Source of the DNA: an uncultured Gammaproteobacteria bacterium
GTDB taxonomy: Bacteria; Patescibacteriota; Microgenomatia; Daviesbacterales; UBA10151
Length of the DNA stretch: 7,704 bases
Direction of reading: 5' to 3'
NCBI GenBank assembly: GCA_964522265.1
Contig: CAZFVS010000014.1
Location: 7,584-15,287, forward strand
Position numbers and translations under genes: made by a program
Shown here: piece by piece, positions 1 through 4,235 of the stretch
How positions within the stretch are numbered: the stretch's first letter is position 1
Layout of the letters: each line of letters opens with the position of its first letter
Notes under the pieces: model-generated
What the model was told of the DNA's origin: nothing
What the model saw: only the letters and a program-made list of their open reading frames with translations
The model's database searches: none

Positions 1-258
1 AGGACACAGATTTATTTGCCAGAAGATTTAAGAAGAGAGATAGACCGTGACCGTGCCCAAAGTGGGGAAAGCAGGGCTGAATATTTAAGAAAAGCTGCTG
101 CAGAACGTATTGTTAGGCGGAGAAAAAGCAAAGTTGATCTTAAAAAATTGGCAGAAGAATTAGGTCGGGGTGTCAAAAAAAGCGGTTGGGAGGGTATGGG
201 TGTGAAAGAAGTGGTTGCCTGGCAGAGACGCATCAGGAAGGACCGTAAAATTTTTTAA
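1..258 (+). CDS. vapB: Ribbon-helix-helix (CopG/Arc-type) antitoxin, VapB-like; 5' end probably upstream of the window
   Basis: The frame is open from nt 1 (RTQIYLPEDLRREIDRDRAQSGESRAEYLRKAAAERI). This is the typical RHH beta-strand, helix, helix N-terminus. The TTG at 16 used by the ORF track would truncate the beta-strand, so the true start is likely off-window. The stop TAA (256-258) overlaps the ATG of the downstream PIN gene by 1 nt (TAATG), a classic type II TA coupling. Confidence 0.75.
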   Translation, partial: RTQIYLPEDLRREIDRDRAQSGESRAEYLRKAAAERIVRRRKSKVDLKKLAEELGRGVKKSGWEGMGVKEVVAWQRRIRKDRKIF

Positions 259-632
259 TGTATCTGGTAGATACCAATGTTTTAATATTGGCTATAGATA
301 ATAAAGAGCCTGCTCATAGCTTCCTTCAAAAAATTATTTTAAAAGGGCAGCTTTACCTTTCTGTTATTGCTATAGCAGAATTTTTAGCTAGGTCCTCTGA
401 CGATGAAGATGCAGAATTAGAAAAACTTTTAGCTACCTTCCCAATAATTGAAATTGATTTGCAAGTATCTAGATTAGCCGCTGGATATAGAAAAAAGTTC
501 CTGAAAATCAGGAGAGTTCAGCTTTTGGATTATTTTTTAGCAGCTCAGGCTAAATTAAATAATCTTACTCTTGTTACGAACAACAAAGCTGATTTTCCAA
601 TGAAAGATATTAAGATAATCTCTCCTTCATAG
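258..632 (+). CDS. vapC: PIN-domain ribonuclease toxin, VapC family
   Basis: The N-terminus MYLVDTNVLI is the canonical PIN start with the first catalytic Asp. Later acidic and polar positions (IAEF, LLDY, TNNKADF) are spaced as in VapC. It is 124 aa and translationally coupled to the RHH antitoxin. Confidence 0.9.
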   Translation: MYLVDTNVLILAIDNKEPAHSFLQKIILKGQLYLSVIAIAEFLARSSDDEDAELEKLLATFPIIEIDLQVSRLAAGYRKKFLKIRRVQLLDYFLAAQAKLNNLTLVTNNKADFPMKDIKIISPS

Positions 633-652
633 TTAACCTTATTTGCTTCATG

Positions 653-682
653 TGTGGGACAAGCAATTGTGGGACAATCAAT
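653..682 (+). repeat. Two adjacent 15-nt direct repeats (tgtgggacaaGcaat / tgtgggacaaTcaat)
   Basis: Copies at 653-667 and 668-682 are identical at 14 of 15 positions and head to tail. A partial inverted copy (attgtcc, 697-703) follows. The repeats sit between the vapC stop and the promoter at 729-757. Confidence 0.8.
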
Positions 683-707
683 AGCTATAGCTACTCATTG
701 TCCTTTT
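671..707 (+). terminator. Candidate weak intrinsic terminator / inverted repeat after vapBC
   Basis: ggacaat (672-678) pairs with attgtcc (697-703). This encloses a perfect 10-nt palindrome agctatagct (683-692) and is followed by TTTT (704-707). The stem is AT-rich, so it may be an operator-like inverted repeat instead. Confidence 0.35.
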
Positions 708-728
708 GATGCATCCTTTAGCCTGTAG

Positions 729-757
729 TTGACTTAATCCCATAGTTATAATATAAT
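729..757 (+). promoter_or_regulatory. Sigma70-type promoter: TTGACT - 17 nt - TATAAT
   Basis: The -35 TTGACT is at 729-734 and the -10 TATAAT at 752-757, with a 17-nt spacer. The predicted start is near 763-765. No plausible protein gene lies downstream before the terminator at 1081-1114. Confidence 0.6.
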
Positions 758-763
758 TATCCA

Positions 764-1114
764 GTTCTTTTAAATATCTTCAGGTAGCTTGCGGCGACCA
801 GACCATTTTCAGTTAAGTGATTTGGTTGCTGCAAGAAACCCTTCTGCCGGATTGTCCGGTAGAAGAAAATGGTGATTCAGCTTGGAGGTTTAGGGTGGAT
901 GATGTTGCCCGTGAGCTAGAGGTTCTAGCTCAGTTGGAGATATTGATCTCCGAGGTTGAGGAGATGGTGTTAGGCATCCTCCGTGAGGAGGATGCCGACA
1001 GGTATCAGGGTTGCGCATACCACGAACCCTCTCGGGTTCGTGGTTGCTACTGGTGCGATCTGTACGTCCACTAGCCTTCAAAAGCCGGGGTGCTTAACCG
1101 CCCCCGGCTTTTTT
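764..1114 (+). ncRNA. Unclassified structured RNA, about 350 nt, from promoter to terminator
   Basis: This is a GC-rich island: hand counts give about 48-57% G+C per 60-nt line, against about 33% for a hand-counted vapC line. Both strands are open here (ORFs 817..1074+ and 890..1081-), as expected for non-coding GC-rich RNA. Hand-found helices: 788-802/821-835 (15 contiguous bp including 3 G-U) plus 804-807/816-819; 841-850/856-865 (10 bp, 1 G-U); 912-920/924-932; 934-941/946-953; 973-982/987-996 (10 bp, GUGA tetraloop); 1020-1029/1034-1043 (10 bp). A long-range closing helix, 882-890/1073-1081 plus 894-901/1065-1072 (17 bp, 4 G-U, 3-nt bulge), encloses a nested 998-1003/1058-1063. The G-U pairs would be C-A mismatches on the - strand, which favours a + strand transcript. 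Confidence 0.6.
1081..1114 (+). terminator. Rho-independent terminator
   Basis: A GC stem gccgggg (1084-1090) / ccccggc (1102-1108), extendable by A-T pairs, is followed by six T (1109-1114). Confidence 0.8.
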
Positions 1115-1155
1115 CATACAAATATAAGTGTAGTACAATACTTTACAGTCCTTTT

Positions 1156-2565
1156 ATGAACCAGCACGCTTCTTTTAGCGCTGTGATCAGGAATAGGGGT
1201 TTTTTAAACCTTTGGATAAATCAGATACTGGTCCAGCTTGCTTACAACTCTTTAAATTTTGCCCTGATAATCTGGATATTTAAACTGACAGATTCCAATA
1301 CTGCGGTTTCCGCTCTTCTTTTGTCAATCTATCTGCCTGCAGTGTTGTTCGGATTATTCAGCGGAGTGTTGGTTGATATCACAGACCGCAAAAAAGTGAT
1401 TATCCTAGTAAATTTTTTTCTAGCGCTGTGTTTTTTGAGTCTAATACCATTAAAATCATTTTACCCTGCAATTTTAGTTTTGGCATTTTTAATCAACACT
1501 GCAGTGCAATTCTATAACCCTTCAGAAGCCTCAGCGATCCCGCTGGTGGTCAAAAAAAACCAGCTTCTTTCCGCAAACTCCTTATTTTCAATAACGCTTT
1601 TTTCCAGCTTTTTACTCGGATTTGGTCTGGCCGGGCCGATTCTTACACATTTAGGGATCAATTTTATTTTTAAATTTGAGGCTGTTTTAGCATTTACGGC
1701 ATTTTTACTGGCTTTCCGTTTCCCCTCAGTCATGAACAAACCCGACAAACAGGGGAAACTTTTAATAAAAGCTTTAAGGAGAAAAGATATGCATTCCATC
1801 AAACAGGTAATCTTGCAGGAAATTAGGGAAACAATCAGATTGATACGGGGCAGGCTGATTGTTTTTTCGGCAATCCTGATCATGTCCGGAGTGCAGATGG
1901 TGATAGGAATCTTAGCTGTACTTGTGCCTTCATTTTTTGAAAGGGTTGTGCAAATTAGGGCAACAGAAGCATCACTGGTTTTGGTTTTGCCGTTGGGACT
2001 CGGTATGGTGCTTGGCGGTTTTGCCCTGGGCAGACTGGGCAATAAATTCCCGAGAAGGATTATTGTGGGCAGGGGGATTATTTTAGCAGGGCTGCTCCTT
2101 TTTACTGTCGGTTTTTCGCCGGTTATTTCACCTGCAATTAAATATTCGGAAAGGATGATGAAAAATAACAGGATAATTGTTTTTAAAAAACCGAGGCCTT
2201 TGCCTTTTTTCTACCAGCCGCCTTTGGCAGCAGTTTTAGCTTTTGGTTCGTTCCTACTGGGTGTTGCGATGGTTTCCATTGTGGTCCCATCCCAAACAGT
2301 GATTCAGGACAGCACTCCTGAAGGGGATCGGGGCAAGGTTTTTTCGGTTTTAGGGGTGGCAATGGCAGGAATGTCGCTTCTGCCTGTACTTTTTGCCGGT
2401 ATCATGGCAGATATTTTTGGGACAACACCAATATTTATAGCTTTAGGCGGTTCAATTGCTATCATTGGATTTTTAGCCCTGAAGCCTGATTTTTTCTTCG
2501 CTGAGCACCACCTCCCGCTCCATATGAAACAGTTTTTAGGCTTAGGGCATTGGAGAAAGAAATGA
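1156..2565 (+). CDS. MFS transporter (MFS_3 / EntS-like 'transmembrane secretion effector' type)
   Basis: The protein is highly hydrophobic with many predicted TM segments. Its N-terminus (FRNRGFLNLWINQILVQLAYNSLNFAL...SGVLVDITDRKKV) resembles MFS_3 family exporters. The ORF-track start at 1090 (GTG) lies inside the terminator stem, so ATG 1156 (MNQHASF...) is preferred. No clear SD is present. A weak TTTTCA-17 nt-TACAAT promoter is possible at 1111-1139. Confidence 0.85.
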   Translation: MNQHASFSAVIRNRGFLNLWINQILVQLAYNSLNFALIIWIFKLTDSNTAVSALLLSIYLPAVLFGLFSGVLVDITDRKKVIILVNFFLALCFLSLIPLKSFYPAILVLAFLINTAVQFYNPSEASAIPLVVKKNQLLSANSLFSITLFSSFLLGFGLAGPILTHLGINFIFKFEAVLAFTAFLLAFRFPSVMNKPDKQGKLLIKALRRKDMHSIKQVILQEIRETIRLIRGRLIVFSAILIMSGVQMVIGILAVLVPSFFERVVQIRATEASLVLVLPLGLGMVLGGFALGRLGNKFPRRIIVGRGIILAGLLLFTVGFSPVISPAIKYSERMMKNNRIIVFKKPRPLPFFYQPPLAAVLAFGSFLLGVAMVSIVVPSQTVIQDSTPEGDRGKVFSVLGVAMAGMSLLPVLFAGIMADIFGTTPIFIALGGSIAIIGFLALKPDFFFAEHHLPLHMKQFLGLGHWRKK

Positions 2566-2569
2566 TAAA

Positions 2570-2758
2570 ATGAGGTCAATAAAAAAAGATTTTGTATTGG
2601 TATCTGAACCTATGGATATGGAAGAAGAGACAGCATACAGTTTGAAATACTCATTAAAAGACATTAAAGAAGCTGAAAAGGAGCTTGATAAAGGTCATTT
2701 TGTAACATTAGAAGAGTTAAAGAAAGATTTCATGATGCGTAATAAGCAAAAAGATTGA
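2570..2758 (+). CDS. Hypothetical 62-aa protein; weak resemblance to the C-terminal half of Phd/YefM-type antitoxins
   Basis: The segment DFVLVSEPMDMEEETAYSLKYSLKDIKEAEKELDKGHF resembles, from memory, the YefM segment ..[39 protein letters not shown]. It starts 4 nt after the MFS stop. No toxin partner follows. Confidence 0.45.
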   Translation: MRSIKKDFVLVSEPMDMEEETAYSLKYSLKDIKEAEKELDKGHFVTLEELKKDFMMRNKQKD

Positions 2759-2849: not shown

Positions 2850-4115
2850 ATGTTTTTGAAATCCCTAAAATTAAAAAATTTCAGGAATTACCATGTTTTA
2901 GATCACTCATTCAGCACCCCGATAACTATTTTGATAGGGGATAATGCCCAGGGGAAATCCAATTTTTTAGAAAGTATTTATTTTCTGGCAGCAGCAAAAT
3001 CCCCCAAAGCCGAAAGAGACGAGGAGATAATAAGGTATGGGGAGGATGTGGTGAGGGTAGAGGGGGTGGTGGAAAATTCAGAACAACTCGGAAAAACTCA
3101 GAGAATCAGCGATTCAAAAATTCAGATAAACCGGAATTCTGGTTTACAGAGTTCTTCTGAGTCATTCCGGACAAATCTGGAAATTACGATGCAGTCTGTT
3201 GATGGCCTGCCTGCCGGCAGGCAGAAAAAACTTAAGAAAAGAATTCAGGTTAACGGCATCCCAAGAAGAATCTCTGATTACAGCGAGAATTTGGCAGTTG
3301 TGGCGTTTGCTCCGGAAGATATCAATATGGTAACAGGTCCGCCGTCTCTTAGACGGGACCACATTAATCAGGTTATTGCACAAATTGACCGCCAGTATAA
3401 AAAGATATGGTCAAGCTATGAGAATATCATTGTCCGGAAAAATAAACTTTTAAAGATGATCAAAGAAGGAACTGCAAAAATTGGAGAATTAGATTTTTGG
3501 TGCAGCGAGCAGCTTAGGTTTGCAGAGGAGATAGTTTCTAAAAGGCAGGAGTTTTTTGAGTTTATCAGTGGTGCAGAAAAAAAATTTGGGGATTTCAAAT
3601 ATGAATACCAGCCCAGTATTTTGACCCCAGAAAGACTTATGGAATACCGACAAAAAGAGATTGACGCTGCTGTCTCGCTGATAGGTCCGCATCGGGATGA
3701 TTTTGCATTTTTGATAACAGATTCAGAAGAACTCGGAAATACTCAGAGTTCCAAGAAATCAGAAGATCAGATAAACCGGAATTCTGGTGTTTCTGATCAT
3801 CCGAGTCATTCCGAGTCATTCAGGAGAAAAGATTTGTCAAAATATGGCTCGAGAGGTGAACAACGAACAGCAGTGTTAGATTTAAAAATAGCAGAAGTCT
3901 CTTTTATGGAACAAAAAATGGGTTCAAGGCCGGTGCTGCTTCTGGATGATATCTTCTCAGAACTTGATTTGGAACACAAAAAACATGTGGTTGAGCTTGC
4001 CAAGCTGCAGCAAACGATCATTACAACAGTTGAGCTTGATAAATACCTTCAGAGCCAGTTTAAAGAAGCAGAGGTATTGGAGGTGAAAAAAGGGAAGATA
4101 AATATTAAGCAATAA
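2850..4115 (+). CDS. recF: DNA replication/repair protein RecF, carrying in-frame insertions
   Basis: The N-terminus LKLKNFRNY is present. So are the Walker A GDNAQGKSN (from 2937), FAPEDINMV, GPHRDD, the signature SRGEQRT and the Walker B LLLDDIFSELD. At 421 aa it is longer than the usual 360-375 aa. The excess maps to the repeat copies at 3078-3170 and 3723-3824 and to the palindrome at 3207-3224. Confidence 0.92.
   Translation: MFLKSLKLKNFRNYHVLDHSFSTPITILIGDNAQGKSNFLESIYFLAAAKSPKAERDEEIIRYGEDVVRVEGVVENSEQLGKTQRISDSKIQINRNSGLQSSSESFRTNLEITMQSVDGLPAGRQKKLKKRIQVNGIPRRISDYSENLAVVAFAPEDINMVTGPPSLRRDHINQVIAQIDRQYKKIWSSYENIIVRKNKLLKMIKEGTAKIGELDFWCSEQLRFAEEIVSKRQEFFEFISGAEKKFGDFKYEYQPSILTPERLMEYRQKEIDAAVSLIGPHRDDFAFLITDSEELGNTQSSKKSEDQINRNSGVSDHPSHSESFRRKDLSKYGSRGEQRTAVLDLKIAEVSFMEQKMGSRPVLLLDDIFSELDLEHKKHVVELAKLQQTIITTVELDKYLQSQFKEAEVLEVKKGKINIKQ
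3078..3170 (+). repeat. Palindromic MITE/RPE-like element, copy 1, in frame inside recF (codons 77-107)
   Basis: It is 93 nt, or 31 codons (SEQLGKTQRISDSKIQINRNSGLQSSSESFR). The left end tcagaacaactcggaaaaactcagag matches the left ends of the other copies. The right end gagttcttctgagtcattccgg is roughly the reverse complement of the left end (about 16 of 22). The central hairpin is aaaccgg-aatt-ctggttt. Boundaries are +/- 3 nt. Confidence 0.8.
3207..3224. repeat. Perfect 18-nt GC-rich palindrome ctgcctgcc|ggcaggcag occupying exactly six recF codons (LPAGRQ)
   Basis: All 9 base pairs were checked by hand. It begins on a codon boundary (3207 = 2850 + 357). It lies in a segment (SVDGLPAGRQ) that is extra relative to my recollection of Bacillus subtilis RecF. 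Confidence 0.85.
3723..3824 (+). repeat. Palindromic MITE/RPE-like element, copy 2, in frame inside recF (codons 292-325)
   Basis: It is 102 nt, or 34 codons (SEELGNTQSSKKSEDQINRNSGVSDHPSHSESFR). The first 26 nt match copy 1 at 24 of 26. A central 22-mer tcagataaaccggaattctggt is identical to copy 1. The right end carries a tandem 10-nt duplication ccgagtcatt x2 (3801-3820). It has the same orientation and codon phase as copy 1 (tca gaa ...) and sits just before the RecF signature motif. Confidence 0.8.
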
Positions 4116-4130
4116 TCTAGAAGCAATTTT

Positions 4131-4223
4131 TCAGAATAACTCAGAAAGACTCAGTAAATCAGATAGTCTGAATACCTGATAATCTGAAATACAGGCACAC
4201 AGAGTTATTCCGAGTCTTTCTGA
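4131..4223 (+). repeat. Palindromic MITE/RPE-like element, copy 3, intergenic between convergent genes
   Basis: It is 93 nt. The left end tcagaataactcagaaagactcag and the right end gagttattccgagtctttctga are homologous to the ends of copies 1 and 2; the interior has diverged. tcagaaagactc (4141-4152) is the perfect reverse complement of gagtctttctga (4212-4223). In the phase used inside recF it reads tca gaa TAA, a stop. A T-rich tract (atttgtttgtattt) follows, so it may also act as the recF terminator. Confidence 0.75.
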
Positions 4224-4235
4224 ATTTGTTTGTAT

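Follow-up and report, generated by a model that had tools for sequence, protein, structure and literature searches.

The window analysed here, a stretch of 7,704 nt from contig CAZFVS010000014.1 (assembly GCA_964522265.1) of an uncultured groundwater member of Candidatus Daviesbacteria, appears to carry an independently transcribed RNA of about 350 nt, reaching from near position 764 to an intrinsic terminator at 1081-1114, in the spacer between a vapBC toxin–antitoxin pair and a gene for a major facilitator superfamily (MFS) transporter. This unit is strongly structured on the plus strand, its two ends are conserved in the sole other genome found with the locus (a groundwater metagenome-assembled genome of another species, GCA_016186955.1, hereafter L001), its body is not conserved, and it is absent from the other lineages surveyed and from known RNA families. 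These comparisons allow us to defend a narrowly distributed new small RNA, or at least a small transcript, whose 5′ double hairpin is apparently under selection, but they do not allow us to defend a further class of large RNAs. The reading that we favour, still tentatively and with real doubt, is that of a stand-alone, lineage-restricted non-coding riboregulator, the 5′ module of which would be functional via base-pairing or protein binding; both the non-coding status and the function of the RNA are argued here from sequence features. The elements of the unit and of its immediate surroundings are the following:

729-757, plus strand: sigma-70-type promoter, TTGACT (729-734), 17 nt, TATAAT (752-757), matching the consensus at 11 of 12 positions
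764-782, plus strand: U-rich 5′ leader GUUCUUUUAAAUAUCUUCA, predicted single-stranded (unpaired in the minimum free energy (MFE) structure), with 15 nt identical in L001
783-840, plus strand: hairpin 1, with a 3-bp base, a 15-bp stem (three G-U pairs) and a 5-bp inner stem (pairing probability P about 1.0)
841-865, plus strand: hairpin 2, an 11-bp stem that abuts hairpin 1 directly (P 0.98)
866-900, plus strand: linker with GGAGG (886-890) and GUG (895-897), as read from the sequence
883-1080, plus strand: central multi-hairpin domain, private to this genome, delimited by its helix probabilities and its excess stability (z = -6.8 for 867-1082)
895-1074, plus strand: open reading frame (ORF) of 59 codons with a GTG start and a TAG stop, called by a gene finder (P0121)
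1075-1114, plus strand: CCUUC anti-GGAGG segment (1075-1079), followed by the intrinsic terminator (A-tract, GC-rich 10+2 bp stem, U-tract)
1111-1139, plus strand: candidate promoter for independent transcription of the MFS gene, with TTTTCA, 17 nt and TACAAT (9 of 12 consensus positions), nearly invariant in L001 and outside the RNA

Conservation of the 5′ Module in a Second Genome

The spacer between the PIN and MFS genes of L001 retains the promoter (with identical hexamers and spacing), the 5′ leader, hairpins 1 and 2, the terminator and the sequence that runs from there to the start of the MFS gene, at an identity to the window of 81% over 138 nt and of 94% over 67 nt (the latter including the terminator). 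The MFS proteins of the two genomes are 84% identical. At four-fold degenerate sites, identity is no more than about 52%, and the two genomes can accordingly be considered as well diverged. Within hairpins 1 and 2, the substitutions are distributed very unevenly, with 5 of the 60 paired columns changed (8%) against 9 of the 21 unpaired ones (43%; Fisher p = 0.001, two sequences only). All five changed pairs are still able to pair (three went from C-G to U-G, one from A-U to G-U and one from G-U to G-C). In hairpin 2, the stem is invariant and the differences are confined to the loop. Because these wobble-mediated changes keep the pairing on the plus strand alone, they speak well, albeit from two sequences, for selection on the RNA structure of the 5′ module.

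A first reading of the window, made without any database search (the sequence-only reading), had proposed a near-consensus promoter and a strong intrinsic terminator bracketing a GC-rich island, and all three hold. Only two promoter-like sites of the window match the consensus at 11 of 12 positions, including the one at 729, from which transcription would be expected to start near 763-765. The terminator stem (1081-1090/1102-1111, extended by 1092-1093/1100-1101), after which the T-run reaches 1114, is itself more stable than its shuffled counterparts (z = -4.8) and, like the promoter, is kept in L001. Between these signals, the GC content reaches 0.49-0.55 (over 801-1100) compared to about 0.33-0.45 elsewhere.

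Predicted Fold and Fate of the Central Domain

When folded on the plus strand, region 764-1114 has an MFE of -175 kcal/mol, against -114 +/- 6 kcal/mol in dinucleotide shuffles (z = -10.2), and its MFE structure contains 125 pairs, 20 of them G-U. The minus strand only reaches -140 kcal/mol, which makes the plus strand more stable by 35 kcal/mol, and the G-U pairs, taken together with the promoter and the terminator, set the strand as plus, as already concluded from the wobbles in the sequence-only reading. When the unit is divided, excess stability is found in the 5′ module (z = -8.4) and in the central domain (-6.8 for 867-1082) as well as in the terminator. Most helices that had been drawn by hand are recovered in the MFE structure: hairpin 1 (788-802/821-835, 15 bp of which three are G-U, P 1.00, plus the inner 5 bp), hairpin 2 (841-851/855-865, 11 bp), a long-range closing helix (883-890/1073-1080 and 894-900/1066-1072, 15 bp, P 0.94-0.98), and, among the hairpins of the central domain (912-932, 946-965 with 936-951 as an alternative, 973-996 and 1019-1044), the perfect stems 973-982/987-996 (GUGA loop), 1019-1029/1034-1044 (UCUC loop) and 912-920/924-932. 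In the inner nesting, the helices 1002-1016/1053-1065 are weak (P about 0.3). As a side observation, the segment AUCUCC (946-951) has two equivalent partners, GGAGAU 936-941 and GGAGAU 960-965, so that the central domain could switch between two hairpins.

The closing helix buries both GGAGG and GUG, hence the putative translation start is sequestered in the predicted full-length fold. The GGAGG at 886-890 has a further potential partner in the UCUUC of the leader (777-781), and RNAalifold proposes a pairing between the leader and GGAG in both genomes.

In the sequences compared, this ornate central domain is private to one genome and without evolutionary support. Its approximately 200 nt cannot be aligned with L001 (global alignment score z = 1.2 versus shuffles), the identity between the two genomes dropping from about 0.5 (866-948) to about 0.25-0.33 (949-1068), and the L001 counterpart shows no excess structure (z = +0.1). 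Among the helices listed in the sequence-only reading as worth checking for covariation, structure-preserving changes are thus confined to the two 5′ hairpins, with no compensatory pair (0) in the central helices, whether one considers the helix that closes the domain, its perfect 10-bp stems or its junction. The same reading had placed the RNA with large structured non-coding RNAs on account of its size and multi-helix junction. If so, the unit would belong to a hitherto undescribed class of structured non-coding RNAs of large size (about 350 nt), with the multi-helix domain as the functional fold. The stability of the domain, its high-probability closing helix, its three perfect stems, a fold that coding does not explain and the lack of any known-family match all speak in favour of such a class. 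Moreover, the unit resembles OLE, GOLLD, ROOL, raiA and HEARO in being a GC-rich island of an AT-rich genome that lacks a convincing ORF and folds into numerous helices, including those of a closed multi-helix domain. However, those families are defined by covariation across many genomes, whereas the complex domain described here occurs in one genome only and matches none of their Rfam models. In the only orthologous locus, it is replaced by unalignable, unstructured sequence, and searches of GTDB species genomes (indirect), JGI metagenomes, IMG/VR, phages and plasmids did not recover it, nor did it turn up as a translated ORF. In addition, perfect palindromes devoid of G-U pairs in the main stems would fit a recent mutational origin equally well. 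The placement among large structured RNAs is consequently left without support, and we regard a new class as quite improbable.

Under the riboregulator reading, the selected part would be the 5′ ~100 nt, i.e., the U-rich single-stranded leader and the two adjacent stem-loops, along with the terminator, which would be kept too, while the ~200-nt body would evolve freely or be swapped between sister species. In the present genome, the body would have become a closed, hyper-stable five-helix domain, pairing a GGAGG-GUG pseudo start site with the CCUUC segment located beside the terminator, and the RNA would therefore most likely remain untranslated. The 5′ module would act by base-pairing or protein binding, the body serving as a spacer or a stabiliser.

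Coding Potential

Several observations weigh against a non-coding riboregulator. First, the comparison involves only two distinct sequences, in which all changes are one-sided and double-sided covariation amounts to 0 pairs. Second, the identity between the window and L001 is mosaic, third-codon identity being 0.75-0.85 in the 3′ end of the PIN gene and in the 5′ end of the MFS gene, and 0.25-0.5 elsewhere, so the conserved ends of the RNA may partly be a recombination tract rather than the product of selection. The contrast between paired and unpaired columns in hairpins 1 and 2 is independent of this caveat. Third, the window and L001 agree in how far GGAG and GTG lie from hairpin 2 (about +22/23 and +32 nt), with a 6-nt spacing. 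Finally, a Shine-Dalgarno motif and a start followed by at least 25 hydrophobic codons, as observed in L001 (see below), arise in 0.02% of shuffles, which fits a small-protein mRNA.

As for the mosaic itself, it extends beyond the spacer: over window positions 1-2600 (L001 4920-7450), third-codon identity, taken over 20 codons at a time, lies anywhere between 0.25 and 0.90, and some patches (e.g., 40-130, 560-620 and 1936-1995) are near-identical, a pattern that suggests recombination tracts between the two lineages.

According to the sequence-only reading, the island had no credible ORF. This was too strong, since the gene finder calls the 59-codon ORF, in which GGAGG (886-890) and a short spacer place the GTG (895) at good spacing, the stop (1072-1074) falling just before the terminator. 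The underlying idea fares better, as tests of codon usage, homology and recoding indicate that the region is probably non-coding. The codon log-likelihood of the ORF is -8 bits, compared to 19 +/- 5 (minimum 4.5) for the real genes of the window. No other homologue of P0121 exists among 1.84 billion representative proteins, and neither Pfam nor NCBIfam returns a match. The native fold is more stable than recodings of the same peptide, by 5 standard deviations (synonymous permutation) to 9 (genome-usage recoding), while 23% of the shuffles that preserve structure and composition contain a frame that stays open for 60 codons or more. The encoded peptide is acidic and helical with a Cys/His tail, and its AlphaFold2 single-sequence model, a trivial long helix with a low-confidence tail, is uninformative. 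Taken together, the ORF is probably not translated and would be a by-product of the fold and of a purine-rich composition.

The corresponding region of L001 (5753-5842) features AAGGAG, 6 nt, a GTG and then a 25-codon ORF, MGYLAYLAFFILATLAILAVGWSVH, which is not called as a gene. Its product, a single transmembrane-like peptide, is strongly hydrophobic (mean Kyte-Doolittle 1.85) and is reminiscent of type I toxins or of small membrane proteins; its codon usage falls in the bottom 2% of real windows. These 25 aa are unrelated to the 59 aa of the window.

Such features raise the alternative of a small-protein mRNA akin to those of type I toxins, in which the hairpins would form a structured 5′ untranslated region (UTR), and a genuine GGAGG-GUG start, closed by CUUC anti-Shine-Dalgarno segments in the leader and near the terminator, would open a fast-evolving ORF. 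In hok-type mRNAs, translation of the toxin is subject to fold-back inhibition, and the RNA described here shares with type I toxin mRNAs a structured 5′ UTR, a short ORF and a Shine-Dalgarno motif and start locked by a long-range helix (15 bp here) to the 3′ end. It also adjoins another toxin–antitoxin module and, in L001, encodes the transmembrane-like peptide. The start signals at equal distances from hairpin 2, the rarity of the L001 configuration in shuffles, the stop codon only 5-6 nt upstream of the terminator stem and the gene-finder call likewise fit an mRNA. On the other hand, the ORFs of the two genomes are not homologous and are devoid of homologues or family matches (including toxin-family hidden Markov models), the window peptide is acidic and Cys-rich rather than hydrophobic, and codon usage is atypical in both cases. 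Further, the fold is far more stable than synonymous recodings, and an open frame is to be expected in 23% of structure-preserving shuffles. The host also rarely uses Shine-Dalgarno motifs: about 20 neighbouring genes (window and L001) all start with ATG and almost none of them has such a motif. As for an antisense antitoxin RNA, a consensus scan, which is a weak test, detected no promoter-like site on the minus strand of 729-1160. Altogether, we deem a small-protein mRNA unlikely, though it is the strongest of the alternatives.

Regarding translation initiation in this lineage at large, several genes display a TATAAT-like -10 box 7-12 nt before their ATG, which suggests widespread leaderless mRNAs.

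Comparison with Known RNA Families

As stated in the sequence-only reading, the unit matches no recognised family. No model of Rfam 15 reached its gathering score over the whole window and, when the search was relaxed to E<=10, region 700-1160 yielded only noise (best 19 bits versus a threshold of 41). This comparison took in RNase P, SRP, 6S, tmRNA, OLE, GOLLD, ROOL, raiA, HEARO, T-box, cobalamin and ykkC, and the L001 locus likewise returned nothing usable from Rfam, while ARAGORN predicted 0 tRNA/tmRNA genes in the window. Some candidates were nevertheless considered individually. The motif UUAGGGUGGAU at 891-900 resembles a T-box core, yet a T-box was rejected because 180 nt separate the motif from the terminator, because L001 lacks it and because the T-box model finds no match. 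Similarly, a retron, a guide RNA or a bridge RNA system was dismissed, as no reverse transcriptase, nuclease or recombinase adjoins the unit, the neighbours being RHH, PIN, MFS, RecF, VTT/DedA and Fic proteins. A literature search on structured RNAs of the Candidate Phyla Radiation (CPR) returned nothing relevant.

The closest likeness is with stand-alone small RNAs (sRNAs) and riboregulators, which are also discrete intergenic units with a sigma-70 promoter, a single-stranded 5′ segment, a Rho-independent terminator and a narrow phylogenetic range; here, in addition, the stem-loops appear to be maintained by structure-preserving changes. In contrast, about 350 nt is long for an sRNA, and two thirds of the molecule are unconserved even in the sister species.

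Genomic Context and Distribution

The RNA unit is preceded by a ribbon-helix-helix (RHH) antitoxin gene (1-257) and a PIN/VapC toxin gene (258-632), together forming the vapBC pair, and followed by the MFS transporter gene (1156-2565) and by genes for RecF, a DedA/VTT protein and a Fic protein. The closest MFS homologue found (P0002, 84% identity) is labelled Candidatus Daviesbacteria at its source, as are several other MFS homologues, and Candidatus Daviesbacteria belongs to the Microgenomates, within the CPR.

Just upstream of the RNA promoter, positions 650-703 hold a tandem 15-nt repeat, TGTGGGACAA(G/T)CAAT x2, followed by the palindrome GGACAATCAATAGCTATAGCTACTCATTGTCC and by TTTT. This arrangement, which could be a terminator or an operator of vapBC, is missing from L001 (59-nt indel). 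The heptamer GGACAAT/ATTGTCC is found at 672 and 697, and again in the loop of hairpin 2 (851).

Downstream, only 41 nt separate the terminator from the ATG of the MFS gene, an order (promoter, small ORF, terminator, transporter gene) reminiscent of the leader-peptide attenuators of efflux pumps. The transcript initiated at 729 might then be a cis-acting leader of the MFS gene, either stopping at the terminator or reading through it, by leader-ORF attenuation or by put-like antitermination mediated by the 5′ hairpins. Leader-translation attenuation operates upstream of some efflux pumps, and put RNA consists of promoter-proximal hairpins that cause processive antitermination via RNA polymerase. 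In line with these mechanisms, a ribosome halted at the ORF stop would, judging from the fold, cover the 5′ arm of the terminator, and the two adjacent stem-loops directly follow the promoter. The promoter-like site at 1111-1139 bears on this question, since it would provide the MFS gene with its own, conserved start of transcription. Moreover, the L001 ORF ends about 85 nt before the terminator (compared to 5-6 nt here), meaning that the two genomes do not share the coupling. Neither an alternative antiterminator fold nor a conserved antiterminator pairing was seen in the unit, which matches no riboswitch or T-box, and the orthologous MFS genes of other Daviesbacteria are devoid of this leader. 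We therefore hold a role as MFS leader to be improbable.

What lies next to the MFS gene varies among related genomes. In three Daviesbacteria loci (L002-L004), fpg directly adjoins the MFS gene; in others (L006-L010), the RHH-PIN pair is followed by 123 unrelated nt and then by the MFS gene; in one (L020), a 179-aa orphan gene comes after PIN; and in L021-L023, fpg sits between the PIN and MFS genes. The vapBC pair itself is missing in some Daviesbacteria. Judged from gene order, the slot beside vapBC is variable and the RNA unit is one of its occupants, specific to its lineage; a synteny walk via the MFS and PIN homologues did not find the unit in other lineages.

This changing cargo also makes one think of a relic or by-product, i.e., the decaying remains of a lost gene (promoter, UTR and terminator) or of an element end, with functionless palindromes born from template-switch mutation. 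The body indeed diverges at or above the neutral rate, and the genome has other hairpin-forming repeats. A decaying remnant is nonetheless difficult to reconcile with substitutions that preserve the structure of hairpins 1 and 2, with a promoter and a terminator left intact in both genomes, and with four perfect hairpins and a closing helix that are hard to obtain without selection. The unit also shows no similarity to the 179-aa gene of L020, which leads us to reject it as a relic of that gene, nor to the local repeat family. Overall, we give little credence to a relic.

Searches of genomes and metagenomes for homologues, which the sequence-only reading had seen as the way to a family alignment, revealed no wider family but only L001. 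In the GTDB species genomes, exact and degenerate patterns, including a 25-base pattern of the 5′ module, returned the L001 contig only. In the JGI metagenomes, neither a 22-mer of the central domain nor a transition-degenerate pattern spanning both 5′ hairpins had a match, and no copy was found in IMG/VR or, using blastn, among plasmids and phages. A covariance model of the 5′ module detected no further copy in about 125 kb of Daviesbacteria loci. At the protein level, translations of both strands of the central domain had no homologue apart from P0121 itself among 1.84 and 5.8 billion proteins. As for the Logan contigs carrying the L001 PIN gene, they are 100% identical to L001. A mobile element of the MITE (miniature inverted-repeat transposable element) type or otherwise associated with palindromes was rejected as well, because neither the 5′ module nor the central domain has a second copy in the same 125 kb or so of Daviesbacteria loci.

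The window contains a distinct repeat family, to which the RNA unit proved to have no kinship. Its repeat unit, about 105 nt long, has inverted ends, can form a hairpin and is present in three copies (3076-3175, 3721-3829 and 4129-4228), two of which lie in frame inside recF, while the third is intergenic. The two recF copies account for insertions (about aa 76-115 and aa 297-325) that the RecF of other Daviesbacteria is without. The first copy is 96% identical in the recF of L001 (L001 8915-9023), despite the low identity of four-fold sites between the two genomes.

Implications

A bolder view, to which we assign a very low probability, would see here the first modular RNA of the CPR, in which the 5′ double hairpin serves as a conserved "handle" and, together with the terminator, flanks a "payload" of ~200 nt. 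Exchange or diversification of this payload between sister species would outpace change at the synonymous sites nearby. If this were true, the payload would confer a specificity proper to each lineage, acting for example against mobile elements as an antisense or a decoy, or would form a structured domain private to its genome; and if the body is functional, such a layout, with a conserved handle and a swapped payload, would be unusual.

Our results also call for caution in scans based on GC islands or strong folds. Here, an extreme z-score and an ornate architecture drawn by hand proved no guide to conservation, as the corresponding sequence of the sister species is unrelated and unstructured.

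Beyond this, we know of no established sRNA biology in CPR bacteria, and almost nothing is known about their regulatory RNAs. In this respect, a clean promoter-to-terminator RNA with apparently selected 5′ hairpins provides a usable entry point.

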